Shown piece by piece: positions 6,405-55,997 of a stretch of 64,000 nt of DNA. Below the pieces are notes generated by a model that had not been told where the DNA came from, did not search any database, and was given only the letters and a program-made list of their open reading frames with translations. Source of the DNA: Glycera tridactyla. Lineage: Eukaryota. The stretch spans positions 130,510,001-130,574,000 of the forward strand of contig OZ286459.1 in assembly GCA_965644265.1 (NCBI GenBank). The letters are read 5' to 3'. Position 1 is the stretch's first letter. Every line of letters begins with the position of its first letter. A program made the translations under genes and the position numbers.

Positions 6405-6439
<35 letters not shown>

Positions 6440-38125: not shown

Positions 38126-41100
38126 ATGAAATTTGAAGACGTCAGAATTTATTTTGTTTTATTTTATTTGTTTCAGTTCTTCCCCGACTCATTTTCTGAT
38201 CAGACTGGAGGTGCTCAAACACGATCTCAGGCAAGACAAACTCGAGCTCGAACACGACAGAGAGGAGGAATATCCCATTTTTGGATACGATCTTCTGCAC
38301 GTGGTTCAAGAGACAGAATTTCAGCACCTATCTCATCGCGATCTCCATCACAAGCTATCACTCAAGTCATTCCTGCTCAGAATGCTCATCCATCACCGAG
38401 GAGAACTTCGCTCACACATGGTCAGATTTCTCCTTCTCCTTCAGTATCACATAGTGACATTTCTGATTCTCATCATGTACATTCACCATCTGCCTTAGAA
38501 TCTGATTCACATACTGTTGATTTTCCGCCACCTTATGAAGAGTCTCAACCTGATTTATACACGGAAATTTCACCTGCATCACCTATTGTTCCAAGACTTA
38601 TTTCAGATCTACCATCTGATATTCCGGATAACTCTCCTGACCTGTCTCCAGACAATATTCCTGTCAATATTACTAATGATGATCTTGGAGATGTTGATGA
38701 TCTCAATTTCACTGATGAAGATAGAGATTTGTTCCATATTTTGAAGATATCATATGATGGATTTCATGATGATCTTGTTTCAGGTTCTATGTTCAAAATT
38801 TCCCCCCAAGAAGGGTTTCTGAACACGTTGTCACCCATGAATATTGTTGAGATTGAAGAGATAATTAGATCTATATTCGAGAAAATTTTAGAAGCTGTCT
38901 CAAAAATATGCAGACCTAGAGATTATGTAAAGATTGTCATTGATCAGGACTCTTTGGATAGCCCCATTATAATTCCCGTAACTCATTATGAAAACATAGA
39001 TGTGGAATCAGTGTTGGCAAGAATTGGCGTTGTTCTTCAGTCAAAAAAAGATGTGAAGGTGGATCATTCATTTTATGTTTCTATTTGTGTCCTCAGAGTG
39101 CTAGATGGGGGTGGAGGGGTTGGGAAGGAAACAATTTCTCTGTTAACAGATGATCTGTATTCTCTGTATTCCAAAAGAAGTATCGTTCGCATTCGAAACG
39201 ATGGAGATAAGACCTGCTTGCCTAGATCTATTCTTGTTTCGTGGGCATATGCTGTCCAAATTAGTAAGATTAAATTTGATGATATGAAGTCTGAAGATGA
39301 TCACAGTAACATTGATACAGTTTTCCGATGTTTAAAGACTTGTCCATCAGTTTATAAATCGATTAGAGAATGGAGAGGCAGGACCCAGGATAGAGCAATT
39401 CAAAAACTCTTGACATTAAATGGTCTGCATGAAAAACGCGAGTTCGGGATTGAAGACATAGAGAAAATTGAAAATGTTTTGAAATGTTGTGTATATGTGA
39501 TATCTCAACTTGGCGGAAACAAATTCATTAGAAAAACATCAGAACATATGAAAGAAATGGGGTGGGTGAAAGTGTATGTATATCATCATAGATTAGATCC
39601 TGGTGATTTGTTATCACCATTTCATTATGACGCCATCACCAAGCTCAATGCTTTTTTTGACAAAAAATCCATTTGTGGAGAATGCTGTAAGCCAAAGAAG
39701 CACAACTCTAGCCAATGTTGCATCCCACAGGCATGTTTGAAATGTAAGTCTCACTATTGCACAAATGTGAATGATGGTGAATTGATATCTTGTCGAACTT
39801 GTACAACATCATTTGGGAATATGGATTGTTATGCCAGACATTCCAATTCCTTCTGTTCAAAGTGGTGGACATGTGTAAAATGTGGGAAAATTTTAGAACT
39901 CTCGAAACGACCACGATTATTGCATAAATGTGGGGAGTACTATTGTTTCAGGTGTGAGCAATTCTTTTGGGAACGTCACGAGTGTTATATCAGGGCCAAA
40001 AAGTTAACCAGCTCTAAATTACAAAATCAGAAAGACAGGGTGATAATTTTTTTTGACATTGAGACACGTCAAGAAACTCGTGTTCAGTGTGGATCTGGAT
40101 ACAAACCATCTGGCAATAGATGTGATAATTGTAAGGATGACTCTTTCCCCTGTTCTGTTTGTGCAAAATGCATCAGTTGTAAGTCATCTTCGTGTGGAAC
40201 CTTCAGACATCAAGCAAATCTTGTTGTTTCACAAAAAGTATGTGATGAGTGTATAGAATTGCCATTTTCTTCTGATTGTGAATGTCACCGGTGTGGGGAT
40301 AGATGTGGTTTAAGATGTAAACTTCATGCTAAAAAAAAACCTATCCGGGAGTATCTTAGAAAATTGTGTTGTGAGAATGATAGATGTGGAGTTCGAGAAC
40401 ACACATTCTGGGGGGATGATTGTTTGGAACTGTTTGTGGATTGGTTGGTCTCTGATCAACATGATGGGGCAACAGTGATTTCTTACAATGGGAGCGGGTT
40501 TGACCATATTTTGGTCCTTCAAGAACTATTGCAAAGAAAACGACTTCAACCGGCTGATGTGATTTTCACTGGAACCAAATTGATATTTATGGAAATACAA
40601 AATCCCATAAACATGAGGTTCATAGATAGCTTCAAGTTTTTAGCTTACTCGCTCAGTGCTCTTCCCAAAGCGTTTGGTATATCGGAGAGTGATGATGATT
40701 GTGAAATTGACAGTACTCTGAGCAAAGGGTATTTCCCACATTTTTTCAATACAGAGGAAAATGAGAATTATGTGGGTCCATATCCTTCACCCCGATTTTA
40801 TGGAATGTCATCCATGAAACCTGATAATGCAGAGAAATTTTTGTTGTGGCATTCCCAAAAAATTGCTGCGGATGAAATTTTTCATTTTAGAAAGGAATTG
40901 TTGGCATATTGTGTGAATGATGTGACTATTTTGAGATTGGTGTGTTTGAAATTTCGGCATCATGTTCAGGAATTGACTGGAATCGACCCGTTCGAGAGAT
41001 GTATCACACTAGCCAATTTGGCTATGCGAATATTTCAATCTAATTTTGTTACAGAGAAATTGAGTGTAACGTTAAAGCATGATCCAGTCTTTCCTGTTAG

Positions 41101-43288
41101 TGAAGACATTGCTGATCTTCAATTATTTCCTGCAGTGGAAAGAGGGGGGAAAGTGAAAGTTGATCTACTTGATGGGGAGGGGATGAGGTCTTCACACGAT
41201 TTGCCTCAAGGGTATTGCATTGATAAGAAAAAATTCATCTCCACTGGACTGGGGAGAGTCCAACCTGGTGGGTATAGGCGATATCTTCATGGGAGTAGTA
41301 AGATTGCCCTACAGTGGTTGAGCTATATTGCACATTCTCAATCACTGCATATCTATCATGCAGGAAATTGGTCAGAAGTTGGTGTCAGGTTAGCAGATGG
41401 CAGACTAGTTTATTGTGACGGGTTTGTTACAGGAGATAATAGAAAACTTCCATTGAAACCAATTGTTTCTTCACCACAGCCAGGTGATGTTGTTTATTTC
41501 TTTCATGGGTGTTGGTTTCATGCGTGTTTGAAATGCTTTCCAGTAGGTCGTGACGAGATTCAGTGTCAAAGGACAAATCGCACTTTCAATGAAATTTATC
41601 GCAAAACAAAAGATATTGAGTCTCTTCTTTCATCATTAGGGTATGAAGTCAAGGTCATGTGGGAACATGAATTCAGACAACACTTGAAGTCTAATCCATT
41701 AATTCAAGTGATTGTTGAATCTATTTTGGACTATGAAGACCCGCTTGATCCTCGAGATGCCTATCATGGTGGAAGAGTTGAGGTATTTCGGATGTCAAAT
41801 TCTGAAAGTAATCATCAGTTTGATGCTCAAAATCAGGGTGACACAAGTGCACAAGATGAGGTTTTCCCAAGAGTAGAGTATGTTGATGTAACTTCTCTTT
41901 ATCCATGGGAAATGAAAACCAAAAAATTTCCAGTTGGACATCCAGAAGTTATCACATGTGGTATGATTGATGGTGATTTCGATTTTTCTCTTGATTCTTA
42001 TTTTGGGGTTGCCAAGGTAACAGTGATTCCTCCAAGAACTTTATTCCTTCCAGTTCTTCCATTGAGAGCAAGAGACAAATTGCTTTTTGCCCTGTGTAAT
42101 TCTTGTTCTCAGATGAATGAACCACCAAGATTTTGTGATTGCAGTGATCAAGAGCGTGCCATAACAGGTACATGGGTGACTCCTGAACTGAAATTAGCGA
42201 TTTCCAGGGGGTATTCAATTCAAAAGATCCATGAAGTTTACCATTTTCCTGATGATTCAGAGAACACCTGTGACCAATTTACTGGAGACAGCGCCAACTT
42301 TTTCAGAGATTATGTTAATTTGTTTCTCAAGATAAAAACAGAGGCTAGTGGTTTCCCCTCTGATTGTAAATTTCCCCATCAGAAACATGAATTTATTCAG
42401 AATTTTAAGGAAGTTGAGGGGGTGGATCTTGACTACCAGAACATGAAATTCAACCCTGCTAAGAGGAATATGGCTAAGGTTATATTAAATAGTTTATACG
42501 GAAAATTAGCGCAACGTGTTGGGAAGTCACGTACAAAAATTATAAATGGGGAGAATCCAAGTGAATTATACAAAGTTGTCTCAGACGCAAGAAGTGACGT
42601 ACTTGATTTCAACATTATGGACAGTGATACTCTTCTGATTGAGTATTGCAATAAGGGTGAGACTCTTCATTCAGGTTCTACAGACAATGTGATCATTGCC
42701 TCGTTTGTTACTGCTTATGCTCGAATGCATTTGTATTTCCTAGCAGAGAAATGTCAGGAACGTATTTTTTATTGCGATACTGACTCACTTATTTACCGGG
42801 CTGATTGTCCTGAACAATGTCTCGAATTAGGACCATATCTCGGTGACCTAACTTCAGAGATTCCTGAGAATACCAGAATTATATCTTTCTTGTCTACAGG
42901 ACCGAAAAGTTATGGATATGTTTTGTCCAATGGAGAATCAGAAATAAAATACAAAGGATTCACCTTGAGTTTAGACGCGTCAAATTATATGAACCTTCGG
43001 GCAATGAAAGATATGATTGATGAATATGCTAAACGAATATCTAATTCAATTGATAAAGAGACTGATTCTTGCGAGAATTCACTGGTGGGGGATCTCATTG
43101 ATGATCTCCCTCTGAAATTTGGAGTTGAGGTGGTTGTTACCAATCCTCAGATTTTTCGTGTGAAGCGAACACTTTCAGTAAACACCAAACAGCAAACAAA
43201 ACGATATCGCTTAAGTAGTGACAAAAGGGTATTCAATCCAGACCTCACTTCTCATCCGATTGGTTATCAATCTCCTGTATTTTCATGA
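38126..43288 (+). CDS. pPolB: Protein-primed family B DNA polymerase (Maverick pPolB); the main exon probably starts at 38177
   Basis: ExoI FFDIET, ExoII YNGSGFD, ExoIII YCVNDV, and polymerase motifs DVTSLYP, KVILNSLYGK and YCDTDS. The N-terminal OTU-like elements are DKTCL and HYDAI. A Vsr-like insert reads FHGCWFHAC...VMWEHEF. Confidence 0.97.
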   Translation: MKFEDVRIYFVLFYLFQFFPDSFSDQTGGAQTRSQARQTRARTRQRGGISHFWIRSSARGSRDRISAPISSRSPSQAITQVIPAQNAHPSPRRTSLTHGQISPSPSVSHSDISDSHHVHSPSALESDSHTVDFPPPYEESQPDLYTEISPASPIVPRLISDLPSDIPDNSPDLSPDNIPVNITNDDLGDVDDLNFTDEDRDLFHILKISYDGFHDDLVSGSMFKISPQEGFLNTLSPMNIVEIEEIIRSIFEKILEAVSKICRPRDYVKIVIDQDSLDSPIIIPVTHYENIDVESVLARIGVVLQSKKDVKVDHSFYVSICVLRVLDGGGGVGKETISLLTDDLYSLYSKRSIVRIRNDGDKTCLPRSILVSWAYAVQISKIKFDDMKSEDDHSNIDTVFRCLKTCPSVYKSIREWRGRTQDRAIQKLLTLNGLHEKREFGIEDIEKIENVLKCCVYVISQLGGNKFIRKTSEHMKEMGWVKVYVYHHRLDPGDLLSPFHYDAITKLNAFFDKKSICGECCKPKKHNSSQCCIPQACLKCKSHYCTNVNDGELISCRTCTTSFGNMDCYARHSNSFCSKWWTCVKCGKILELSKRPRLLHKCGEYYCFRCEQFFWERHECYIRAKKLTSSKLQNQKDRVIIFFDIETRQETRVQCGSGYKPSGNRCDNCKDDSFPCSVCAKCISCKSSSCGTFRHQANLVVSQKVCDECIELPFSSDCECHRCGDRCGLRCKLHAKKKPIREYLRKLCCENDRCGVREHTFWGDDCLELFVDWLVSDQHDGATVISYNGSGFDHILVLQELLQRKRLQPADVIFTGTKLIFMEIQNPINMRFIDSFKFLAYSLSALPKAFGISESDDDCEIDSTLSKGYFPHFFNTEENENYVGPYPSPRFYGMSSMKPDNAEKFLLWHSQKIAADEIFHFRKELLAYCVNDVTILRLVCLKFRHHVQELTGIDPFERCITLANLAMRIFQSNFVTEKLSVTLKHDPVFPVSEDIADLQLFPAVERGGKVKVDLLDGEGMRSSHDLPQGYCIDKKKFISTGLGRVQPGGYRRYLHGSSKIALQWLSYIAHSQSLHIYHAGNWSEVGVRLADGRLVYCDGFVTGDNRKLPLKPIVSSPQPGDVVYFFHGCWFHACLKCFPVGRDEIQCQRTNRTFNEIYRKTKDIESLLSSLGYEVKVMWEHEFRQHLKSNPLIQVIVESILDYEDPLDPRDAYHGGRVEVFRMSNSESNHQFDAQNQGDTSAQDEVFPRVEYVDVTSLYPWEMKTKKFPVGHPEVITCGMIDGDFDFSLDSYFGVAKVTVIPPRTLFLPVLPLRARDKLLFALCNSCSQMNEPPRFCDCSDQERAITGTWVTPELKLAISRGYSIQKIHEVYHFPDDSENTCDQFTGDSANFFRDYVNLFLKIKTEASGFPSDCKFPHQKHEFIQNFKEVEGVDLDYQNMKFNPAKRNMAKVILNSLYGKLAQRVGKSRTKIINGENPSELYKVVSDARSDVLDFNIMDSDTLLIEYCNKGETLHSGSTDNVIIASFVTAYARMHLYFLAEKCQERIFYCDTDSLIYRADCPEQCLELGPYLGDLTSEIPENTRIISFLSTGPKSYGYVLSNGESEIKYKGFTLSLDASNYMNLRAMKDMIDEYAKRISNSIDKETDSCENSLVGDLIDDLPLKFGVEVVVTNPQIFRVKRTLSVNTKQQTKRYRLSSDKRVFNPDLTSHPIGYQSPVFS

Positions 43289-43305
43289 ATCTGAACTTAT
43301 TGGCT

Positions 43306-44570
43306 TGAAATGACACCTGTGAGTGTCTGTGAATTTCTGTACATATTATTTGTCTTTTTTTTCAGGATTTTTTGAAATGACACCTGTGAGTGTCTGTGAA
43401 TTTCATATCATTTTGAAATGACACCTGTGAGAGTCTGTGAATTTCATATCATTTTGAAATGACACCTGTGAGTGTCTGTGAATTTCATATCATTTTGAAA
43501 TGACACCTGTGAGTGTCTGTGAATTTCTGTACTTATTATTTGTCTTCTTTTTTTCAGGATTTGTTGAAATGACACCTGTGAGTGTCTGTGAATTTCATAT
43601 CATTTTGAAATGACACCTGTGAGTGTCTGTGAATTTCTGTACATATTATTTGTCTTCTTTTTTTCAGGATTTGTTGAAATGACACCTGTGAGTGTCTGTG
43701 AATTTCATATCATTTTGAAATGACACCTGTGAGTGTCTGTGAATTTCTGTACTTATTATTTGTCTTCTTTTTTTCAGGATTTGTTGAAATGACACCTGTG
43801 AGTGTCTGTGAATTTCATATCATTTTGAAATGACACCTGTGAGTGTCTGTGAATTTCTGTACATATTATTTGTCTTCTTTTTTTCAGGATTTGTTGAAAT
43901 GACACCTGTGAGTGTCTGTGAATTTCATATCATTTTGAAATGACACCTGTGAGTGTCTGTGAATTTCTGTACTTATTATTTGTCTTCTTTTTTTTCAGGA
44001 TTTGTTGAAATGACACCTGTGAGTGTCTGTGAATTTCATATCATTTTGAAATGACACCTGTGAGTGTCTGTGAATTTCTGTACATATTATTTGTCTTCTT
44101 TTTTTCAGGATTTGTTGAAATGACACCTGTGAGTGTCTGTGAATTTCATATCATTTTGAAATGACACCTGTGAGTGTCTGTGAATTTCTGTACATATTAT
44201 TTGTCTTCTTTTTTTCAGGATTTGTTGAAATGACACCTGTGAGTGTCTGTGAATTTCATATCATCTTGAAATGACACCTGTGAGTGTCTGTGAATTTCAT
44301 ATCATTTTGAAATGACACCTGTGAGTGTCTGTGAATTTCTGTACTTATTATTTGTCTTCTTTTTTTCAGGATTTGTTGAAATGACACCTGTGAGTGTCTG
44401 TGAATTTCATATCATTTTGAAATGACACCTGTGAGTGTCTGTGAATTTCATATCATTTTGAAATGACACCTGTGAGTGTCTGTGAATTTCATATCATTTT
44501 GAAATGACACCTGTGAGTGTCTGTGAATTTCATATCATTCTGAAATGACACCTGTGAGTGTCTGTGAATT
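43306..44570. repeat. Structured tandem array: 25 copies of a 32-bp core (TGAAATGACACCTGTGAGTGTCTGTGAATTTC) with two alternating spacer types
   Basis: Counted by eye: 15 short spacers (ATATCATTT, 41-bp unit) and 9 long spacers (TGTACWTATTATTTGTCTTC(T)nCAGGATTTGT, about 69-bp unit). The middle has about 110-bp and 220-bp higher-order periodicity. Confidence 0.95.
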
Positions 44571-44781
44571 AATTGTATTGATTTCTGAACAGATCAATTT
44601 ATTTCTGACATGTGTTCCATAATGTCTTGTTGAAGTATCCAAAGGTTCTCCAAGCATCTCCTTGATGATTGTCACTCGCCGAATTTCTCCCGGCCAAGTG
44701 CTGTCCTGTCCTGATGTCTCTCATTGTGTACTCCATGATGTCTTTGTTCCAATCTTTTGCATCTGATTGGATTGGGTCCTC

Positions 44782-44897
44782 CTCCTCATTCTTCCACACG
44801 CAATCACGATAGATGTCACTCGTGTGTGTTCCTGAATGGCTCCTCATTCTTCCACACGCAATCACGATAGATGTCACTCGTGTGTGTTCCTGAATGG
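44782..44897. repeat. 58-bp direct tandem duplication
   Basis: CTCCTCATTCTTCCACACGCAATCACGATAGATGTCACTCGTGTGTGTTCCTGAATGG occurs twice. Confidence 0.9.
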
Positions 44898-46317
44898 AAC
44901 TCATGATGATGATGAATGTCACTCGATATGTGTTATTGACTGTGTCGTCTCTGGTGATGGGACATAATGATGAAAACAAATGCATCTGATGTTTGATGAA
45001 TGCTTTCTTGTGTTTTGATCATTTGATGTGTTGTTCTTATTCATGGTGTATGGTGATGGGTTCCCCTGTCATGCGGAAAGGTCTTTTTCTTCTGTGAACC
45101 CATGGCTCAGTCCACTTACCAATAATTTTCATTGGTCTGAAGTCCGATATTTTCTGTGAGCCCAGCTCAAGTCCACCTGCCAATTCTGTGACCCCAGCTC
45201 CAGTCCACCTTCTAACGTTGTGTGCATTTCTTGGATCATGAGCTCGCGTTAATTCTGCACGTGACTAGTCGGATTGATGAAATCAATTTTCAGCCTTCTT
45301 TGCTTCCATACTGTCCTGTCTTTTCAATTCTTGCTGAGTGATCTTTCACAATACGGTTCATCAATTTCAGATGAATTGGGTCGATGAAAAAAAACAAGAA
45401 TGATAATCGATAAAAAACAGGGATGATAATAATATCATTTCTTGGGATTTGGTTTTTGATGAGAAGAACCAGCAGGGATGAATGCTCAGCATTAGTGAAT
45501 ACTTCGATTACACATCAGAATGATATATTCATAATTCAATCATATATAAATATATATAGATAGATGTACGACACATGATATATTACAAATACATTCGCAT
45601 ATATATATTACAAATACATTCGCATATATATATATACATATACAATACATTCGCATATACATATACATATATTTCTATATATAACATATACGAGATTCTC
45701 ATTCAATGTAACATACTGTCCAAATCGCCCTCGGCACAGTAGGTTCCATGGTATTAAGTTCATGTACTGTTTGTTCATGCACAGTAGGTTCCAGGGTATT
45801 AAGTTCATGAACTGTTTGTTCATGAATAGTTCATCATGAATAGTTTGTTCATGATGTGAGTGGGGTATACATCTTCACCTTGTCTGGCATGTATCTGACC
45901 TTGTCTGAAATGATAAATCATTCTCAACCTTCTCTTTCACACTGTCAATGTTTCTCACAAATGTCACAATGAAGCTGAGTTTTGATGTGAAACACTTGTG
46001 GGGGGAGCTGGTGTGCTGAACACCTGCTGCATCTCTGGTGTGAATCCATGGGATTGGTCTGTTGAATCCATACATCTCTGATGTATGCTCTTGTATGGCT
46101 GTTCACCCGTGCGTGTTCCCAAGAACCGTCTGAAAAATCAATGTATGCTCTTGCATGGCACAATGTATGCTCTTGTATGGCACACATTAGTCTCATCCCA
46201 ATCAAGATTTGAATAAAATATCATGCTTGTAGAATTAAAATGAATATTTTGTTGGAGTTCTATTTTCATGGTGTTTCAATTAATCACACGCATGAAACAC
46301 AAGACACTCACTCTCAC

Positions 46318-46335
46318 GTACACACACTCTCACGT

Positions 46336-46366
<31 letters not shown>

Positions 46367-46410
46367 TACATACACACACACATACACACACACACACACA
46401 CACATACATG
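46318..46410. repeat. (CA)n microsatellite upstream of the ATPase
   Basis: Directly visible. Confidence 0.9.
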
Positions 46411-46598
46411 CATGCATGTATGTATGCATACATGCACTCCACTCTCTCATCCATAGGAGGAAATGATATACTTCACCAACCCATTGATGACCATTCACGT
46501 AACCACTAATTCTCCCAACATCAACAACAACAACACTACCACCAACACCAACACCAGCTCTGTCACCAGTGACACGTTGCTGACCGATCACTCCAAAA

Positions 46599-47303
46599 AT
46601 GAACGTGATCAAAGTTTCAACAAGAGCAGTCGATGGGAAAAATGGGACATCACGTCTCCAGTTTAAGGAAAACTCAAGTTTTATAATTTGTGGAAGATCC
46701 GGAAGTGGGAAATCAACTTTTATATATAATTTGCTGAAGAATGTGGATGAAATGTTTGAGAACGAAAACAGAAGAAAATATATTATTTTGTACTGTTACT
46801 CAACCGACCAGCCTCTCTTCAAAAAAATGCAAAAAGAGATTGATAATATAACATTCAAGAAAGGATTACCCACTGATGCTTTACTAGAAAAAATGATCTC
46901 CCCTGCTAAACATCATCTTCTCTTGATTGTTGACGACCTAATGAGCGAAGTCGTATCCTCCAAAATGATTTTTGATTTCTTTACAATTAAGGCTCATCAC
47001 ATGGGTGCATCTGTATTTTACGTCTCCCATAATTTATATCAACAGGGGAAATTCAGCAGGGCGATAACCTTGAATGCCTCATATATTTGTTTGTTTCAAA
47101 ATGCTCGAGGAGCTGATCAAATCAATACGCTCAGTAGACAGATGTTCCCTGGACCACATAACATCATTCCTCAAGCTTATAACATGGCTATGAAAATTGG
47201 TCAATATGGGTATCTTGTGATCGATATGACAGCAAATGTTGACGATAATCTCAGGATACGCACTCAGATATTTCCAAACGAGGTGAGCAGATTCTATACA
47301 TAG
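46599..47303 (+). CDS. ATP: Genome-packaging ATPase (FtsK/A32-like)
   Basis: Walker A GRSGSGKS, Walker B LLIVDD, and Polinton-type downstream motifs AHHMGASVFYVSHNLY and RAITLNASY. Confidence 0.95.
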   Translation: MNVIKVSTRAVDGKNGTSRLQFKENSSFIICGRSGSGKSTFIYNLLKNVDEMFENENRRKYIILYCYSTDQPLFKKMQKEIDNITFKKGLPTDALLEKMISPAKHHLLLIVDDLMSEVVSSKMIFDFFTIKAHHMGASVFYVSHNLYQQGKFSRAITLNASYICLFQNARGADQINTLSRQMFPGPHNIIPQAYNMAMKIGQYGYLVIDMTANVDDNLRIRTQIFPNEVSRFYT

Positions 47304-47321
47304 AATGAGAACTAAATCTGA

Positions 47322-47732
47322 TTGCATAGGAACATGAGAAGAAGGACTTTTTGGGAACTCATGCCATCCTCATTTCAGATAGTGAAGGGTGAACGTCCTT
47401 TTTTCTTTGCTCTACTCAATGCGCCTGATGACAAAGAACTCCAGAAAAAGCTTCTGCAATGTATGTCAGTACCTCAAGCTAAAGCTATAGGAGCTATTGC
47501 CGCAAATGTGCTTTATGGAACAATAGGAATAGCCAAACAGAAGAAAGATCAGCTCAGGCCTTATAAAAAATTTCTGAGATCAATTTCCGATGATAATGTA
47601 GGTCCACGAGTAAGAAAAAAAATACTATTGACTCATCCATTGGAAACAATCGGTTTTATCAAGATAATTTTTAAGAATATTGATTTCTTGATATGGAGAG
47701 ATCATCGAAATCAGAACATGCGACCAAAGTGA
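47322..47732 (+). CDS. Small basic protein of the type usually next to the ATPase in animal Mavericks
   Basis: The segment AIAANVLYGTIGIAKQKKDQLRPYKKFLRSI...RKKIL resembles, from recall, the conserved N[IL]LKG.VPL...K..L..YK..LR.L pattern. Confidence 0.7.
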   Translation: MHRNMRRRTFWELMPSSFQIVKGERPFFFALLNAPDDKELQKKLLQCMSVPQAKAIGAIAANVLYGTIGIAKQKKDQLRPYKKFLRSISDDNVGPRVRKKILLTHPLETIGFIKIIFKNIDFLIWRDHRNQNMRPK

Positions 47733-48043
47733 GGGATTTCTTCCTGATCCCATTTAGTAAGCTAGATGACTTTGTTCAAAGTGAAATGCTCCCACCAGAA
47801 ATAGCGACAGAATCTTTGGAGTCAACATCAGGGAGTGCTGAACATGAAATAAATACTGCTCACAAAGAGGAAAACAGCGAGTCTCCAACGGAAGGTTCAG
47901 GGGGTAACACCCATTCGCTCACTTCGAAGAATTATCAATCGACAGAGACCACAATCAACGGATCTCGGAATTCATCAGAGTCTCAGGAAGCCCGTCTTTC
48001 TACAAATTCTGATCATGGAACTTCGAAAAAAATCAACTCATGA
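47693..48043 (+). CDS. Short Ser-rich ORF (116 aa), possibly a truncated conserved Maverick gene
   Basis: It overlaps both neighbours in an operon-like manner. The N-terminus is HATKVRDFFLIP, then low complexity. Confidence 0.4.
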   Translation: MERSSKSEHATKVRDFFLIPFSKLDDFVQSEMLPPEIATESLESTSGSAEHEINTAHKEENSESPTEGSGGNTHSLTSKNYQSTETTINGSRNSSESQEARLSTNSDHGTSKKINS

Positions 48044-48656
48044 CGAAAATTGGGAGGAATTCATGAGAGACGGAAAAAGTTACGTAAACTGTGGATCAAT
48101 ATTTAACACAGAGGTACTGTGTACAAATGTATTGTGTGCTGCATTCACAGGGTGTCCAATCAACCTTCAAGCCTTGGCTAAGGAACTTGTGAATTCTGAA
48201 TTCAACCCTTGTAAAATGAAGTGTATTATATGGCGTCATAGAAAGATAGGTGAAGGGAAAGCAGTAGCTCTGATATTTAGTTCAGGATATATATCCGTCA
48301 ATGGAAACAAAACCATATTGGAAGCCAAAGCAAACATTCGTAAATTCGTTAGAATTCTACAAAAAAAGGGGTATAATTGTTCCCTTAAATGCATCAATAT
48401 TCAAGCAATTTCAGCTTCGGCTAAAATTCTGAAAAATCACCATTTATCAATCGAGAATATTGTTTCTGTTTTCAATGCATCCTTTGAGCCAGAAATACTG
48501 CAGGCTGTTCATGTAAAAAGGGGGTCTATCTCGATGTTGGTCTTTCCATCGGGAAGGGTCGTCATTACTGGTCTAAAACCATTCAAGTCATCCTTGAAAA
48601 TTGTATGTGACTTTCTCACTGAATTATGTATTCTTTGCTCAGATACAACACCATAG
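48015..48656 (+). CDS. Divergent TATA-binding-protein (TBP)-like protein
   Basis: Both TBP repeats are recognisable. NVLCAAFTGCPINLQALAKELVNSEFNP aligns to [28 protein letters not shown], and ALIFSSG is identical. RKFVRILQKKGY aligns to RKYARVVQKLGF, FEPEI to YEPEL, and LVFPSGRVVITG to LIFVSGKVVLTG. Confidence 0.9.
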   Translation: MELRKKSTHDENWEEFMRDGKSYVNCGSIFNTEVLCTNVLCAAFTGCPINLQALAKELVNSEFNPCKMKCIIWRHRKIGEGKAVALIFSSGYISVNGNKTILEAKANIRKFVRILQKKGYNCSLKCINIQAISASAKILKNHHLSIENIVSVFNASFEPEILQAVHVKRGSISMLVFPSGRVVITGLKPFKSSLKIVCDFLTELCILCSDTTP

Positions 48657-48689
48657 GAATAAGAAGAGATAATTCAATTCAACGAGAAT

Positions 48690-49154
48690 ATGGAAAGCAT
48701 CCGAATTGAGCACCCCTTGTCAATGGGCATCGGGACACCTGATTCTAACTCAGTCTCTCGCTCAACGAGTTCATCAGATAATCATATTAATAACATAGGA
48801 ACAGATGGTGGAATCTCAAAAAATTCTGACAGATGCTCTGTTGATGGGGATATTACCAATAGAGTTGATGGGTCGCCGAGCCTTTCTCTCAGATCGAGTG
48901 ATGTTCAGTATCCTGCATTGTGCATAAAAAACAAAGTATTCTCCAAAGAATCATTTTATGCCCAAGCACTGCTGATATATATTATCTGTATTGCTTGTAT
49001 CATAAATTTAAGTACAGGCTCGGAACATACGTCTGTCTGGATCTCCCTATTATCGGCTAGCTTAGGCTACATTTTGCCATCACCAAAGATTCGAGGTGCC
49101 CAAAAAAATACAGTAGTTGGAGTGACCCGTGATGTGGTACCAGCAGACAGATGA
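48690..49154 (+). CDS. Small membrane protein (two C-terminal hydrophobic segments)
   Basis: QALLIYIICIACIINLS and VWISLLSASLGYILPSP. Its stop overlaps the integrase start (ATGA). Confidence 0.75.
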   Translation: MESIRIEHPLSMGIGTPDSNSVSRSTSSSDNHINNIGTDGGISKNSDRCSVDGDITNRVDGSPSLSLRSSDVQYPALCIKNKVFSKESFYAQALLIYIICIACIINLSTGSEHTSVWISLLSASLGYILPSPKIRGAQKNTVVGVTRDVVPADR

Positions 49155-50521
49155 AGTGGCGAAGATATTTGCGAAATATTTACAGAAATTTGAAGAAAGG
49201 AGGAAGTTATCAATCTGCTGATAAGCTCTATCATACAGTTCAAAAAGAAAGGAAATTTGATATCTCTTTAGCTCAAATCAAAATTTTTTTAGCATCAGAA
49301 GAGACTTATACCCTCAACAAGGAGGTCAGGCGAAGATTCAAAACTAATCACATTGAAGTCACTTCATCTGCCAAGCTTTTGGAATGTGACTTAGCTGATC
49401 TCCAAAAATATATCAAGCACAATGATAGGGTTCGCTATCTTCTCGGAGCAATTGAAACATTTTCACGTAAACTTTGGATTCAACCTCTGAAAACTAAAAG
49501 TGGAAATGAAACCGTGCAAGCCCTCAAAGTTATATTCAGACAGTTAGGTGAAAATCCGAGATCAATCAGAAGTGACAGAGGAAGTGAATTCACCAATTCT
49601 GTAGTATCTGAATTCCTTTCATCTCAAGGAATTGGACAAACATTCACCTCCAATTTAAGTCAGGCAGCCTACATAGAAAGAACTTGGAAATCGATCAAAA
49701 AAAAAATGATAAAATACATGCATGATCGACGAACATCAAGATACATAGACATTATCCAGGATCTTGTTACAGGGTATAATAACACTTTTCATTCTTCTAT
49801 TGGGATGACACCAAATGAAGCATTTCAAGCAAACCCAATCAAGGTTGAAATAAATCAATTAGCCAATAGACAAAGAAGGGAAAAAAGGTCGAACAAAAAT
49901 CCTGAGACTTCAACATCCGTGAAAAAGGAGCAGGATGTGAATGCCACCGATCTTGTTCAGCATCAGCATCCAAGGGGTCATCAATTACCCTCTGCTGAAG
50001 GTCACACAGATGAGATTAATATGAGTGATAGGACTCCCACTGAAATTCAAAGAGACAACCCTCATCTTCAGCAAAATCAAGCAGAGATTGAAGAAGCCAA
50101 CCAACGGAAGAAAGATGAAAGGAGGACACAGATGCGAAAAAAGAATAAGTACAGATTTACAATCGGGACACCGGTTAGAATATCTAAAGTTCCCCAAAAA
50201 CTTGATAGAGAATACACTGAGAAATGGAGCAAAGAAATTTTTTCTATTCATTCCAGACGATTCAGAGAAGGAATTCAAGTTTATAAAGTCAAGGACTCTG
50301 AAAATGAAATTCTCATAGGAACATTTTATGCTTCTGAGCTACAAAAGGTTTCAATTCCGAAGAAATCTAAACTTTATGACATTAATAAGGTGATCAAAAC
50401 CAGATCTGTTTCATTACCAAACGGAAAATCAAAACAAGAAGTTTTTGTCAGTTTTGTTGGGTTCCCGGCTAAATTCAATCAGTGGATTCCAAAATCAGAC
50501 ATCAAACAATTTGGAAATTGA
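49151..50521 (+). CDS. INT: Retroviral-type (rve, DDE) integrase with C-terminal chromodomain
   Basis: D in ECDLADL, D in SDRGSEF, E in IERTWKSIK. The region after the core reads KYRFTIGTPVRISK...YTEKWSKEIF. The chromodomain ends VSFVGFPAKFNQWIP. Confidence 0.96.
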   Translation: MKWRRYLRNIYRNLKKGGSYQSADKLYHTVQKERKFDISLAQIKIFLASEETYTLNKEVRRRFKTNHIEVTSSAKLLECDLADLQKYIKHNDRVRYLLGAIETFSRKLWIQPLKTKSGNETVQALKVIFRQLGENPRSIRSDRGSEFTNSVVSEFLSSQGIGQTFTSNLSQAAYIERTWKSIKKKMIKYMHDRRTSRYIDIIQDLVTGYNNTFHSSIGMTPNEAFQANPIKVEINQLANRQRREKRSNKNPETSTSVKKEQDVNATDLVQHQHPRGHQLPSAEGHTDEINMSDRTPTEIQRDNPHLQQNQAEIEEANQRKKDERRTQMRKKNKYRFTIGTPVRISKVPQKLDREYTEKWSKEIFSIHSRRFREGIQVYKVKDSENEILIGTFYASELQKVSIPKKSKLYDINKVIKTRSVSLPNGKSKQEVFVSFVGFPAKFNQWIPKSDIKQFGN

Positions 50522-50524
50522 AAT

Positions 50525-51022
50525 ATGAATCAAAGAGAAGAAATAAGCTTCAACATTCACATTTCAAGTACAGATAGTTCCCAGACCTATCCATCAAATC
50601 GTGCATTTGACTTCATCTGTGATTTTCCTTATCCATTACATTTTCCAGGGGAGTGGTTCTGTTCTGTGGAAGGTATTTTAGTTCACATTAACAATGACAA
50701 AACTGAGGACCCATTAAAAAAAATCAAATTACCACCATGTGTTCATATCGTCCTGGATTGTATTCACACTTCAATTGTGAATGGAACTGAAGCAAGAATA
50801 TGTGCATCTTCATTCATTGAGAATGAAGAATCAGAGGAAGATAGGATGTTACTCCCGATCATAGGAGATGGACATGTTCTCCTTGATAAGTCTAGATTTT
50901 CTAGAATCAGGATTCAACTCGTCGATGAACAATTGGAAAACTGTTCTATGTTTCATAAAAGAACATTTGTTGTTCTGAAGTTTCTATGTAAAGTATGGCC
51001 TCCTGGACGAAAGGACAAGTAG
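50525..51022 (+). CDS. mCP: Minor capsid protein (penton, single jelly-roll), compact form
   Basis: The N-terminus FNIHISSTDSSQTYPSN...FPYPLHFPGEW and C-terminus RIRIQLVDEQ...FVVLKF fit the Polinton mCP pattern. Its position between integrase and MCP agrees. Confidence 0.8.
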   Translation: MNQREEISFNIHISSTDSSQTYPSNRAFDFICDFPYPLHFPGEWFCSVEGILVHINNDKTEDPLKKIKLPPCVHIVLDCIHTSIVNGTEARICASSFIENEESEEDRMLLPIIGDGHVLLDKSRFSRIRIQLVDEQLENCSMFHKRTFVVLKFLCKVWPPGRKDK

Positions 51023-51357
51023 GCCACTTTGAACGCCACTTCAATGCACAGTCAAAAGGACATATACCCTACTCACCAGGATTCACAATAGTCGGAAAAA
51101 TTGGTGGACGTCCAAATTACCCCCACCATCCTTCACCTGATACACCGCAGATAGCATCTATTTCCCCAGCGATGGCAGCCGTTGAACAAGCCTCAGACGT
51201 CATCGGAGCAGGTCATAGGAGACGGAGAAGATCAAGAAAGAAAAGAACAAGGACAAGATCGAAAAGACACGTGAAGAAAAAAAAGTCATCTCGTTCAGGA
51301 AGAAGAAAGAAAAAGTGTTCATCATCAAAGCGTAGACGAAGGAGCGAAGCATTCTAA
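50995..51357 (+). CDS. Arg/Lys-rich putative DNA-condensing core protein
   Basis: SPAMAAVEQA is followed by RRRRRSRKKRTRTRSKRHVKKKKSSRSGRRKKK. It lies directly upstream of the MCP. Confidence 0.75.
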   Translation: MASWTKGQVGHFERHFNAQSKGHIPYSPGFTIVGKIGGRPNYPHHPSPDTPQIASISPAMAAVEQASDVIGAGHRRRRRSRKKRTRTRSKRHVKKKKSSRSGRRKKKCSSSKRRRRSEAF

Positions 51358-51367
51358 AGGAACTAAC

Positions 51368-52737
51368 ATGGAGATGGAGACAACAGGGTCAGGGGGTGAA
51401 GAGGTTCCACCCGGGACGGATACCAGATATGGATATCCGTCAGAGTGGGAGCTTTTCACGTTACCACCACAAGACATCTCAAGGGAGAAAAGTGTTGTTA
51501 TGAATTTTTCACCGGTCGCTCAATTACGAGCTGGTGCACCAATTGAATTTAACATCATGCCTAACTCACTGATGTACATTGATCTCAAAAACATCAGATT
51601 ATACTTGAAAGTAAAAATTACAAAAGCAAATGGTGATAACATTCCAACTGCTGACCTACATGGGTTTATCAACTATCCAATTGCCACTATTTTCAAACAG
51701 GTGGATCTATATCTACAACAGCAAATTGTCAATTCATCGGGGTCAGCTTATGCTTACAGGAGCATCATCGATGTTCTTCTCGAGAGTGACTATAATGATA
51801 TATATGGATATCTCGGAGAAGGTCTTTTCTTTGCAGACAGTGCTGGGACGATGGATAGTGTGCTGGCAAGCGGAGATGGGACCAACAGTGGACTCATTCA
51901 AAGATTGACTCGAAAGTGGTGGAACTGATGGGAAAAGTCCATTTAGATCTCACTTGACAAGAAAGATTACTCCTCAATGCAGTTCAAGTCACACTTAAAT
52001 TCACCCAAAACCAAGACAATTTCCGTATTATCAGACCAACACCAACTGCAGCGACAGGTGAAACAGCTCCAGCAAATAACTACAAAGTGGAGATTTTGAA
52101 TGCAGCTTTGAAGGTACCAATGATCAAACCATCACCAGCCATGATTCTAGGTCACAATACAGGACTCTCTTCAGGACCTGCCTTATACCCATTTGAAAGA
52201 ACAGAGATAAAAACGGCAGCGATTCCTTCCGGAATGACACAATGGCCGCTAGATAATCTTTTCCTCACAGCCCAACCAAAGAGACTTGTTGTGGCCATGG
52301 TCTCTTCTACAGCCTTCAATGGTGACTACACTAAAAATCCATTTAATTTCCAGCACTTCAATTTGAATTATCTCTGTCTCACAGTTGATGGCTCATGTGT
52401 TCCCTCTCAGGCGTTTCAACCCAATTTCTCAGAGGACTTGTTTTTGGAGGCATATGATTCTTTATTCTCGTTCACTCAAGATGAAGCTTTAGGAAAAACA
52501 AGGAAAACAACAACAATAAAGAGATCTGAGTATGCCGGAGGGTTTACTATGTATTTGTTCAATCTAGATGGTGGTGCTCAGGGTGAACCATATGTGAACC
52601 CACAATCCATCGGCCTCAGTAAACTCGACATCAAATTCTCTTCACCATTGACTGAATCTGTAACAGTTATTTTATATGCAACTTACAACGCACTATTTAG
52701 AGTCGATGGTGCACGAAATATCAAGATAGATGGGTAA
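51368..52737 (+). pseudogene. MCP: Major capsid protein (double jelly-roll) disrupted by a frameshift near 51905 and an in-frame TGA at 51955-51957
   Basis: The N-terminal part (51368-51928) has SEWELFTLPP, PIEF, YIDL and YAYRSII. The shifted frame reads DSKVVELMGKVHLDLT*QERLLLNAV, then continues into ORF 52087-52737 (PKRLVVAMVSSTAFNGDYTKNPFNFQHF). Confidence 0.9.
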
Positions 52738-53248
52738 ATTTAACACATCAAACTCATTCGGTGTATTATCTACGTCTGATATTTTCAATGCACTTCAAAA
52801 ATTCAATAAATCTCATATCTTCAAGTATATTGAAGTTTGTGCGGTGAATGAACTTCCTCATTTTTTCATTGTTAAAAGACCAGCACTTCTGATCATCAAC
52901 ACTGATCCAAAGTTCAAAGGCGGGTCTCATTGGATATTAGTGCATTTACAAAAATGTAATTTATCATTGCATATCAGTTACGACGCATTCTTCTTTGACC
53001 CACTAGGATTCCCACCATCCTTTTATGGGGTTGAATTCGTTCAGTTTCTCCGAAGAAATTCAGTCTATGACTATAAGTTCAATTCTATCCCTCTTCAACC
53101 CAATCTTTCAAACTCTTGTGGATTTTATTGCTGCCTATTTGCCAAAAAACAATGTGAAGGAATGAAAATCCACTGGGACATAGTTTCTTACATTTCCACC
53201 AAATCAGAACATCAAATAATACAAGAAGTAATCAGTATCACGGAATGA
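52730..53248 (+). CDS. PRO: Adenain-like cysteine protease (capsid maturation)
   Basis: His in GGSHW, Asp in FFDPLG, and Gln/Cys in LQPNLSNSCGFYC. Confidence 0.93.
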   Translation: MGKFNTSNSFGVLSTSDIFNALQKFNKSHIFKYIEVCAVNELPHFFIVKRPALLIINTDPKFKGGSHWILVHLQKCNLSLHISYDAFFFDPLGFPPSFYGVEFVQFLRRNSVYDYKFNSIPLQPNLSNSCGFYCCLFAKKQCEGMKIHWDIVSYISTKSEHQIIQEVISITE

Positions 53249-53324
53249 TCAATGATGACGGTGATGATGATGTGATCAGGATGATCATGACAATGTACAT
53301 AATAATTGTGACGATGATATTTGC

Positions 53325-53346
53325 AATGATGATGATGATATTTGCA

Positions 53347-53418
<72 letters not shown>
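53325..53418. repeat. (GAT)n microsatellite downstream of the protease
   Basis: Directly visible. It explains the poly-Met ORF 53245..53490. Confidence 0.95.
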
Positions 53419-53420
<2 letters not shown>

Positions 53421-53804
53421 TTTTGTCTGGGTATTATATCACTTCATAAGATGGAATCTATTTAATCTTCAAAAGTCGTTCTGCGAGTGAATGATTTGTA
53501 ATTATATATCAAGTAGGTCGAATTATCAAGAATTATAGGGTAGGGCTCATTTCACCCAGATCAAATCTCTTGAAATAATACACGCAATCGCATAGTTGAG
53601 AGAGAACGGAAATATCATCTACTCAGGAATTGTGTCAAGAGTAATAAAACAAGTGTCATAAATTTAGCGAACTGACACATCAACAACAAACACATGCGGA
53701 ATTATCGTCAGCGCCCAGCAGCACTTGAGTGTTGGATCCCTTCCCGCTCATCGTTGCGAGGAACGCTACCCAAGTGATCGGGGATTCTATGAACCATTAT
53801 CAGG

Positions 53805-54602
53805 ATGGTGGTATGTCTGTATTCACCATGGTGTAACTGTTTTATGTCGCGGAAAGGAGCGTCCATGTTTTGCAACAAACACCCACCGAACGTGCGAAAA
53901 GGGTGGGGTCGGTTCGCGAAGTATATCGAGGTTGATGGGGTTTGGTGGGGACCCGAGGAGTCCGGTGAAACCACCTATGCATCGCCACGGATGGATTCGA
54001 TGGGGAACTATTGGTCTAGCACCAATCCGCTAGAGTCCGCCACTTCACCAATTTGGTCGCCTTCAGTTTTGTCCACCGCCGGATTGCCCAATGATGAAGA
54101 AATCTCATCCACCACTGAAAACTTGTCCATCACTGAAAACTTGTCCACCACTGAAAACTTGTCCACCACTGAAAACTTGTCCACTGAAAACTTGTCCACT
54201 GAAAACATGTCCACCACAGAAAACACGCCCACCACACTCACCACAGAAAACACACCAACCACAGAAATCACCACTGAAATCACTTCCCTCTCGGCTGATG
54301 GATTTTCGGATGACGAATCTTCCCCTTACGTAACCGAGGATTCAGATAGGAAGATAGAGTTTCCGCATCTCTATCATAATTCAACAGAGGCTATCTTTGG
54401 ACCAACCTCCACAGCAACTACCTCCATATCATCAACCACCACCTCATCATCGACCACCACCTCTTCAAATTCCAACTCTATTGACATCTCCAGTGTGGCA
54501 TCGGGCTCACTCGCAGGATCCTCACTCATTGGGATTATTGTCGGCGTCGCCATTGTTCTGGGTATGGCACTCGCAATCTTCCTCCTCTACAAGCTCGGTT
54601 AG
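53805..54602 (+). CDS. Mucin-like type I membrane glycoprotein, ectodomain/TM exon (coding probably to 54597, then spliced)
   Basis: TENLST repeats carry N-x-S sequons, followed by a Thr/Ser stalk and a TM segment LIGIIVGVAIVLGMALAIFLLY. The donor G|GTTAGT is at 54598. Confidence 0.75.
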   Translation: MVVCLYSPWCNCFMSRKGASMFCNKHPPNVRKGWGRFAKYIEVDGVWWGPEESGETTYASPRMDSMGNYWSSTNPLESATSPIWSPSVLSTAGLPNDEEISSTTENLSITENLSTTENLSTTENLSTENLSTENMSTTENTPTTLTTENTPTTEITTEITSLSADGFSDDESSPYVTEDSDRKIEFPHLYHNSTEAIFGPTSTATTSISSTTTSSSTTTSSNSNSIDISSVASGSLAGSSLIGIIVGVAIVLGMALAIFLLYKLG

Positions 54603-54826
54603 TACTTTTTTGGTACATTTCTGTCATAATTTATACCATGTCTGAATTGATATATTTTCAAAACAGAATCTTATTCTGATGACATCACAATTGAGCAGTC
54701 ATCATCTCAAATCTTTTATTTCTATTTCTTGATCCACATGCATTGGACTGTCAAATTAATGTCTATGTCTACCAAAATTTCAGTTTTTTAACCAATTTGA
54801 AATGGTCTTGAATTGATGTATTTCAG

Positions 54827-55014
54827 GTCAACCGTTGCTGGACAGACTTTCGGAAGCCTTCGCCAGAGTGGAGAGACGAAGACATCGAAACACGGAACCA
54901 ATGACAGTGACAAACCCAAACCCGATATTCACGATTGAAGATGGACAGAGTGTGTCATCTCTCCTTCGATCACAAAATCTTGGACAATTCCCCTCAAGAA
55001 ACATAGGATCTGCA
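54827..55014 (+). CDS. Predicted exon 2 of the membrane protein (juxtamembrane basic cytoplasmic segment)
   Basis: The acceptor tttcag at 54826 is phase-1 compatible with the donor at 54598. It yields GQPLLDRLSEAFARVERRRHRN. Confidence 0.55.
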
Positions 55015-55379
55015 GTAATCATGACTTTTTTGTACATTTCACATTTGGATCCCCATTGACTTAGTCTGTCTACTTGTTCGTTCGTTCGTTCGCTCGTCTG
55101 TTTGTTCGTCCGCCCAACCAATCTGTCTCACCGCTTCTGTCCANNNNNNNNNNNNNNNNNNNNNNNNNNNNNNNNNNNNNNNNNNNNNNNNNNNNNNNNN
55201 NNNNNNNNNNNNNNNNNNNNNNNNNNNNNNNNNNNNNNNNNNNNNNNNNNNNNNNNNNNNNNNNNNNNNNNNNNNAGTTTCGTAACTGACTGACTGACTG
55301 ACTGAAAACATAGAAATTATTCACTTTCGTATAATTTTTAATGCACCTTTTAAAATTATTGCACTGTGACATTTTTCAG

Positions 55380-55997
55380 GTGGCAGAAAATCAAGCTGAT
55401 CCCACTCCTGTTGCCTTGAGACCACAAACAGACGCATGTGGAGAAGAGAGTATGGAAATGAGTGTGTTCAATCCGCGCTCATATTCAACCCCGCTTCCAA
55501 AATCCACCCCGCTTCCAAAATCCACTCACCGCTTCAAGGAGACACACATGCACATCTCACAAATACTTGAAGAAAGAAGCGAGAAGGAGGATGAAGACAT
55601 CGTTTTTGATCAACAGACATGGGTGATCAATCAACCGAAATCAATGACAATAAATAAAAATCGATCTAGGGAACCTGAACCAATGAGATCGGATAACCCA
55701 GAAAATGACAAAATGAAAGATATCAAAGAATTTCTTTCAGGATACCCACCCCATTCTCCGCAATTTCATGTCTCTTTTCAGGATGTTCAAGATGAGTCTG
55801 ATGAACTTGATGAGATCATCAACAGACACCGAATCCCGATGAACACTGGTATTCCAAATAACGACTTTGACCAATTCAAAATGAAGTCCGAATCAGGCTC
55901 TTCAAATACAGAAACTGGGTGGTGGAAAGACCGGTCTGCTGAACCATCCATCTCACCATCCAATTATCAATCTTCAGACAATGACATCCACAAGTAA
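55380..55997 (+). CDS. Predicted exon 3 (disordered cytoplasmic tail); track ORF 55341..55997
   Basis: The acceptor atttttcag at 55379 is phase 0, matching the donor GCA|GTAATC at 55015. The frame stays open past the TAA into a poly-Pro tract. Confidence 0.5.
   Translation: MAENQADPTPVALRPQTDACGEESMEMSVFNPRSYSTPLPKSTPLPKSTHRFKETHMHISQILEERSEKEDEDIVFDQQTWVINQPKSMTINKNRSREPEPMRSDNPENDKMKDIKEFLSGYPPHSPQFHVSFQDVQDESDELDEIINRHRIPMNTGIPNNDFDQFKMKSESGSSNTETGWWKDRSAEPSISPSNYQSSDNDIHK

Follow-up and report, generated by a model that had tools for sequence, protein, structure and literature searches.

The window (the whole 64-kb stretch of DNA analysed) contains a full-length Maverick/Polinton element of 31.7 kb, whose ends read AGTAGT...ACTACT and which is bounded by a 6-bp target-site duplication at 29041-29046 and 60707-60712, read directly from the sequence. 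Pfam matches within the element cover a protein-primed DNA polymerase B (pPolB), an ATPase, an integrase, a protease and TBP. Terminal inverted repeats (TIRs), AGT-type ends and a 6-bp target-site duplication are Maverick features according to PMC8097293. The Maverick context assumed by the original prediction for this locus is thus confirmed by the Pfam matches, the duplication and the ends. The main features are as follows.

29047..60706, no strand: full-length Maverick/Polinton
29047..29548, + strand: left TIR of about 500 bp, with its partner at 60205-60706
38126..43288, + strand: pPolB, 1720 aa (PF03175, E 4.8e-40)
43306..44570, + strand: repeat array of 25 cores (32 bp), 15 short and 9 long spacers
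44599..44985, - strand: putative 128-aa ORF converging on pPolB, with a perfect 58-bp tandem duplication at 44782-44897
44600..46600, no strand: repeat-rich degenerate stretch from the array to the ATPase, 25% tandem repeat
46599..53248, + strand: core module of packaging ATPase, TBP-like gene, integrase, major capsid gene and protease
48015-48656, + strand: TBP-like gene (PF00352, E 1.4e-24), between the ATPase block and the integrase
49151-50521, + strand: integrase (Pfam)

The array fills the tail-to-tail gap between pPolB and the minus-strand ORF, leaving 17 bp to the pPolB stop codon (which ends at 43288) and 28 bp to the stop codon of the minus-strand ORF. The latter ORF has no relatives among 1.84 billion representatives and a Pfam match below threshold only, and tblastn of its region against 43 pPolB loci returned nothing. 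There is no plus-strand ORF of more than 50 aa within 44570-45500. The first AATAAA on the plus strand lies 2,923 bp past the pPolB stop, and none of the 13 poly(A) hexamer variants sought on the plus strand of the array was found. A promoter and terminator scan was empty, although its models are bacterial and not apt for this host, an animal and probably an invertebrate. Tandem repeats make up 8.5% of the element without the array, 1.6% of the flanks and 25% of the 2 kb to the right of the array.

Several further observations concern the element and its surroundings. The major capsid gene (51368-52737), located by tblastn with the protein of a relative, is broken in two at a frame change near 51905, which reflects either a defective copy or an assembly error. 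Two large accessory ORFs (35647-38034 and 53805-54602) contain Ser/Thr-rich tandem repeats with 21/42-bp and 18-bp units; the second ends in a transmembrane stretch and has a weak sialomucin match. The TIRs (29103-29310, mirrored at 60440-60657) hold a 36-bp G-rich duplication, and their long (GGA)n tract has the potential to form G-quadruplexes. In the host flank, 600 bp left of the insertion, lies a MITE-like inverted repeat (28310-28451), whose 61-bp arms (87%) enclose a loop of 20 bp. A 229-aa minus-strand ORF at 58492-59181 is PC4-like by ESM Atlas only (0.88 to a cluster with 31% PC4); it has no Pfam or PDB match and no tblastn match in the 43 loci, and the PC4 label is a lead only.

Anatomy, folding and homogeneity of the array

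The array consists of 1,265 bp of head-to-tail units of 41 and 69 bp (S and L), in which the core is followed by a short or a long spacer, and is free of N. The cores are identical across all 32 bp in 23 of 25 cases; that of unit 3 has one substitution and that of unit 25 differs in its last two bases. All short spacers are 9 bp long and 13 of the 15 are identical, whereas the nine long spacers comprise seven of 37 bp, one of 35 bp and one of 38 bp. The numbers of cores and spacers, the order of L and S units and the distance to the pPolB stop were exactly as the original prediction had them. Scanning the window for the core with up to three mismatches gave 25 matches, all inside the array, and none in 100 shuffles; a search of the rest of the window for similarity to the array gave a best E of 0.28. 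The following elements of the array and its edges are used below.

43286..43301, + strand: apparent decayed left-edge copy, resembling the core end and the start of the ACTT long spacer, and containing the pPolB stop codon
43373..43413, + strand: example S unit, 41 bp
43606..43674, + strand: example L unit, 69 bp, reading on the plus strand as a 49-nt GT...AG intron-like and a 20-nt exon-like part
43496..44156, + strand: three higher-order blocks (L-ACTT, S, L-ACAT, S) of 220, 220 and 221 bp
43347..44369, + strand: nine 3'-acceptor-like sites (pyrimidine tract and CAG/G), with AG ends at 43365, 43557, 43667, 43777, 43887, 43998, 44108, 44218 and 44369
44581..44606, + strand: apparent decayed right-edge copy, similar to the first part of the ACAT long spacer

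The 9-bp spacer of S matches positions 6-14 of the long spacer at eight of nine bases, so that S is possibly a deletion derivative of L. The L unit corresponds to 23 codons, and three of its six frames are open in tandem, among them a 23-codon minus-strand frame containing Pro-Glu-Lys-Lys-Lys. The 220-bp higher-order unit that had been proposed is real for three copies (43496-43715 and 43716-43935 are identical, and the third is one base longer), but the underlying alternation of ACAT and ACTT spacers, in the order A,T,A,T,A,T,A,A,T, amounts to seven of eight possible switches and an exact p of 0.071. A CRISPR-like array was ruled out, as there are two spacer types instead of unique spacers of even length. 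The unit also matches a site just ahead of the pPolB start (38112) at 18 of 21 bases, which is chance level, as 7 of 40 shuffles score as high.

The units contain a 33-bp imperfect inverted repeat with a 5-bp stem, a 5-6-bp outer stem and a 5-nt bulge. Its GACAC/GTGTC stem, the basis of the hairpin described in the original prediction, appears in every fold of array units, but the stability of the folds is modest. As RNA, z is -1.87 for the core, -0.87 for the 41-mer, +0.59 for the 110-mer, -0.43 for the 220-mer and -1.71 for a run of short units; as single-stranded DNA the core reaches -4.3 kcal/mol and z -2.87 (2 of 200 shuffles). An iron-responsive element has a CAGUGN loop and an unpaired C 5' of a 5-bp stem. 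The core has the loop CUGUGA, a U before the stem, its bulge on the 3' side and no Rfam match, and this candidate was rejected.

Mean pairwise differences are 0.27% among cores, 1.5% among 37-bp spacers and 3.0% among short spacers, compared with seven differences among 498 aligned sites (1.4%) between the two TIRs. The claim that the array is far more homogeneous than the TIRs therefore holds for the cores but not for the array overall, in which there are 3-5 private substitutions against 8.9 expected from the TIRs, a difference that is not significant (p=0.09-0.24). Judged by this comparison, recent expansion of the array is plausible rather than shown. Expansion with homogenisation of the inner copies is backed by decayed copies at the edges. 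On the left, 15 of 18 columns align to the core end and the ACTT spacer (shuffle p=0.028, post hoc); on the right, the likeness to the ACAT spacer has a shuffle p of 0.04 (post hoc), and the copy extends over the stop codon of the minus-strand ORF and the AATAAA (44598-44603) with which that stop codon overlaps. These are two of four post hoc comparisons, of which the two cross comparisons gave p values of 0.29 and 0.41, and the apparent likenesses of the edges to long spacers are weak.

Occurrence in related elements and public sequencing runs

A protein search yielded four related pPolBs (P0001-P0004) at 46-49% identity and a tail of further matches at 28-43%. No pPolB relatives came from viral contigs; in metagenomes, where the alignment of these proteins was used, 43 of 291 candidates were confirmed as pPolB loci. 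The close set comprises 12 loci with at least 45% pPolB identity (45-53%) and 649-5,997 bp of sequence past the stop, all from one short-read assembly; L003, with 61 bp past the stop, was used for tandem-repeat finding (TRF) only, and 22 other loci for all-loci scans only. Neither the core nor such an array follows pPolB in any of the 12 close relatives or of eight more distant loci. Across all 43 loci, no stretch comes closer to the core than 9 mismatches in 32, and exact scans for the core and its variants found none in viral contigs, metagenome contigs or prokaryote genomes. In the comparison with other elements that the original prediction had called for, the array is absent from 12 of 12 close relatives, which represent distant families. 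Because these families are distant and come from one assembly, this absence does not amount to absence from the family of the window. A likeness to the region past the L009 pPolB stop (76% over 42 bp, E 0.82) was set aside.

The gene module is common to the window and its close relatives. Other tandem repeats lie within 1.5 kb past the pPolB stop in three of 13 relatives, and an AATAAA lies within 250 bp of it in nine of 12, the other three lacking one like the window (the distance in L007 was scored as 76, about 12 bp too short). In L001, L007, L008 and L011 a gene converges on pPolB, yet there is no array. A TBP-like gene at 39-43% identity is present in seven relatives (L001, L002, L004, L006, L008, L016 and L024); within the core module it is conserved throughout this Maverick clade, and it is possibly of more interest than the array.

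The relatives also show features of their own. Families of the clade differ in the orientation of the structural module with respect to pPolB, some having it inverted; L001, L007, L008 and L011 stand on one side and L002, L004, L005, L006, L016, L024 and the window on the other. Directly past its pPolB stop, L002 has a (CA)n tract and four 71-bp hairpin-like repeats (5845-6670) at 163-226-bp spacing, which share no sequence likeness with the array of the window. A common purine-rich word of about 15 bases, recognised by eye, lies 250-450 bp past the pPolB stop in L004, L005, L006, L016 and L024; in L006, L016 and L024 it falls within a small coiled-coil ORF.

Sister copies of the family of the window are known as contig fragments only, none of which spans the array. 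We compared contigs of four public sequencing runs with positions 41500-43400, a region that reaches into the array as far as the greater part of the second core and so includes one complete unit. Run X3, which may be RNA, did not cover the array. No contig consisted of array sequence alone, but with every record at least 151 nt long this does not count as evidence of absence. In run X1, pPolB contigs about 98% identical to the window covered 24 of 30 bins, and thus the same family is present there. A contig of run X2 matches 43308-43347 without difference and then continues at 44605 onward at 26/30, joining the core and the start of the long spacer straight to the minus-strand ORF and bypassing the right edge seen in the window. 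The right end of this sister copy therefore differs, and the array junction varies between copies. This contig breaks off exactly 30 bases short of the first spacer base, where at k=31 a break would fall if the core had two different followers in that sample. On the evidence of one contig, this suggests that the core is repeated there too, and the family as a whole may carry the repeat as a lasting feature.

Runs X1 and X4 each yielded one contig in which the core is one base shorter (base 43319 is missing). The last 30 letters of their core flanks (169 and 255 letters) show no relation to one another or to any part of the window, with 11-12 mismatches in 30 at best. In both, TG precedes the core, as at the long-to-core junction, and in X4 a word resembling the short spacer comes after it. 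The core thus occurs also in other contexts. The original prediction had regarded dispersal of the repeat outside Mavericks as a reason to abandon it; a near-identical core does stand beside two unrelated flanks, but these, judged from 30 letters, could belong either to a dispersed host repeat or to other Mavericks. Absence from related families and the presence of the core beside unrelated flanks lean against a function of the array.

Origin and possible roles of the array

Minisatellites, or VNTRs, are arrays of 0.5 kb to a few kb made of head-to-tail units of 10-100 bp, a description that the 41- and 69-bp units over 1,265 bp fit. The array is probably a lineage-specific composite minisatellite that arose by slippage or unequal exchange and has no sequence-specific job. 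This reading is supported by the absence of such an array from the relatives, the repeat-prone nature of the element, the repeats in relatives, the decayed edges, the variable junction, the shortened core beside unrelated flanks, the modest folding and the antisense account of the T tract given below. Against it count the distance and single origin of the close relatives, the chance that the whole family carries the repeat, the greater uniformity of the cores than of the spacers, the rarity of the acceptor-like site described below, the lack of a canonical poly(A) signal near pPolB and the weak, post hoc nature of the edge likenesses.

We infer the following course of events. The starting point would have been the local duplication of 69 bp where pPolB and the minus-strand ORF meet tail to tail, a place that would tolerate insertions. 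A 41-bp derivative would have followed, probably through a deletion between short stretches of identical sequence, and polymerase slippage or unequal exchange would then have copied units and blocks of 41, 69, 110 and 220 bp. Protein-primed replication proceeds by strand displacement, during which the small hairpin on the displaced single strand could aid copying. Inner copies would be kept homogenised while edge copies decay, and the array would persist because it interrupts no core gene. The core itself could come either from the junction of the element or from a dispersed host repeat. If the minisatellite reading is right, the array is of little import beyond serving as a marker that separates Maverick copies and as an example of a repeat-prone element. 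Were the array instead a barrier to transcription or a set of splice cassettes, as discussed next, it would bear on the processing and control of Maverick transcripts, which are almost unstudied.

The array could be a transcription barrier, or reiterated termination zone, that spaces convergent 3' ends and limits read-through and double-stranded RNA. The near-exact fit of the array into the gap between the two stop codons and the AATAAA of the minus-strand ORF at its right edge speak for such a role, and in pseudorabies virus, according to PMC4487798, untranscribed repeats lie between distant convergent genes and had earlier been predicted to be insulators. Yet the four relatives with a gene converging on pPolB do without an array, the array carries none of the poly(A) hexamer variants on its plus strand, and the minus-strand ORF has no homologue, which makes convergent transcription putative only. 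On balance this explanation is unlikely.

The acceptor-like sites, which the original prediction did not mention, suggest another role. Fifteen of the 16 positions before CAG/G are pyrimidines in eight of the nine sites and 14 in the first, and a GTGAGT stands in the next core, 20 nt past each CAG/G on the same strand. Such a site was found in none of 5,000 dinucleotide shuffles of a 78-nt unit content and at none of the 366 other CAGG sites in the window. Equally strong sites occur once in about 121 kb of window and 16 times in 441 kb of loci, and the chance of one in such a unit is about 0.6%, before correction for the several motif types examined. The long units could accordingly be read as splice cassettes in the pPolB 3' UTR, with up to nine introns and 24-25 U1-type sites, laid out as 49-nt introns and 20-nt exons or as 90-nt introns and 61-nt exons. 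They would tune the export, NMD decay or poly(A) choice of an intronless polymerase mRNA. If so, the array would be a repeat-encoded splicing dial, in which unit number tunes how the host handles the mRNA (export, decay, poly(A) and silencing). The branch-point consensus is yUnAy, and a word of this type lies 23 nt upstream of the acceptor in the ACTT variant. The absence of AATAAA for 2.9 kb also fits, and the array may accordingly lie in a 3' UTR, as the original prediction had considered.

Much else speaks against splicing, and we consider it quite improbable. The thresholds were set after the site had been seen, and the donor alone appears in 6.9% of shuffles. What the X1 and X4 cores lack is the donor G, the first base of its GT, the X2 copy has no acceptor past its last core, and the spliced products would be closed in all frames. 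No splice joints were found over 41500-43400 in the four contig sets, none of which is recorded as RNA. Past pPolB the acceptor is not conserved, as one of 12 relatives has a 14/16 site within 600 bp. The same letters would be yielded by antisense Pro-Glu-Lys-Lys-Lys codons: in X2 the minus-strand ORF continues in frame into the open frame of the L unit, so that the T tract there would be the antisense of Lys/Glu codons, and 9 of the 16 background acceptor-like sites lie antisense to an ORF of at least 100 aa. Antisense Lys/Glu codons would also explain the intron-like look of the L unit. In the literature, repeated splice boundaries known as mirages leave splicing undisturbed (PMC3087553), a small artificial intron gave no HUSH protection in human cells (PMC8770142) and no introns were observed in vertebrate Mavericks (PMC8097293). 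An array of coding micro-exons was rejected.

Acceptor-like T-rich CAG tracts also occur in the left arm of the element (38100-38180, 35642, 33343 and 34131), just ahead of or just within several ORFs. One of these is pPolB, in which the opening 17 codons resemble an intron. Splicing of the left arm may therefore take place in the manner of adenovirus E2. A count of acceptor-like sites at 12/16 gave 38 on the plus strand and 30 on the minus strand, which does not support enrichment.

The original prediction had proposed an iterated protein-binding locus (an enhancer, origin or packaging signal comparable to baculovirus hr regions), possibly bound by the TBP- or PC4-like proteins; host factors would be other candidates for binding. 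A near-invariant core with variable spacers would suit such a locus, as would the folding of the imperfect inverted repeat as single-stranded DNA (z -2.87), and the core holds what we take to be a CACCTG E-box and a T-box-like half site. The units of hrs are 64 bp long with a 24-bp imperfect palindrome, but hrs recur around the genome, both according to PMC4535591, whereas the array stands at one locus. A TBP site was rejected, there being no TATA in the array, and the seven relatives with a TBP-like gene have no array. The base missing in X1 and X4 also destroys the E-box. According to PMC8097293, priming of Maverick replication is expected at the ends of the element. An hr-like, TBP-bound or origin role is unsupported on three counts, namely the single locus, the lack of TATA and the absence from all 12 close relatives, and an iterated protein-binding locus is as improbable as splicing.

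That assembly has partly shaped the length and unit order of a genuine repeat is very improbable. The window has seven N runs, those inspected all lying within simple repeats, the length of the T run varies among long spacers, and the array was not spanned by a read here. Against this, the array has no N, its irregular order and private variants are unlike a collapse, and the core was found at the same junction in an independent run.

A small-RNA precursor (which the original prediction had entertained), a structured non-coding RNA or an array of Pumilio sites is extremely unlikely: the GACAC/GTGTC stem is present in all folds and the Pumilio-like word UGUACAUA, which we take to be a Pumilio motif, stands in five of nine long spacers (1.3% of shuffles), but it is disrupted in the other four, the array has no long stem (220-mer z -0.43), and its Rfam matches stay far from the gathering scores (mir-2 at 18.9 bits against 45.5, STAXI at 16 against 40.5).

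Comparison with known systems

In the literature searched, which did not extend to Repbase or most subscription papers, no Maverick was described as having such an array. In the individual sources, 'tandem repeat' occurs in PMC8097293 only among the references, 'splic' is absent from PMC8502044, and Polintons or Mavericks are not mentioned in PMC9659126, PMC10218199 or PMC12628747.

The central repeats of Helentrons and HINEs in Crassostrea gigas (PMC7492417) form short dispersed arrays, and the core likewise occurs beside other flanks. However, the array has no left or right modules: neither a subTIR, inverted repeat or microsatellite on the left nor a subTIR and palindrome (about 60 bp) on the right is present. 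Its 17- and 28-bp flanks look like decayed units and align to the long spacer. A HINE with central repeats was rejected as an identity for the array. Baculovirus hrs (PMC4535591) share with the array an AT-rich makeup, a repeat size of 40-70 bp and an imperfect inverted repeat, but they occupy several loci, are found family-wide and have shown origin and enhancer activity. All 25 matches to the core lie in one array, which the relatives lack. The candidate counterpart of the long (24-30 bp) imperfect palindrome of hr units would be the 5-bp stem with its 5-6-bp outer stem and 5-nt bulge.

The intergenic repeats of pseudorabies virus (PMC4487798) resemble the array in filling the gap between converging ORFs of a double-stranded DNA virus, although they belong to another virus group and number several against one here, where the convergent partner is putative. 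By this analogy, the array might at most work like a viral intergenic repeat.

Parallels for a minisatellite come from amphioxus and plants. The 'mirage' minisatellites of amphioxus Adh3 and globin (PMC3087553) have AG/GT units, concerted evolution and decayed edges; concerted evolution from which the edges are excluded is described there for minisatellites. The units of the array likewise contain splice signals, and its inner copies are homogenised and its edges decayed (edge p 0.03-0.04, post hoc). Mirages copy a real host intron-exon boundary, whereas none was identified here and the array lies past the stop codon of a virus-like element. The PisTR-A and Gmr9 minisatellites of Ogre elements (PMC9659126), like the array lineage-specific and downstream of the polymerase gene of an autonomous element, lie in the 3' UTR of plant LTR retrotransposons.
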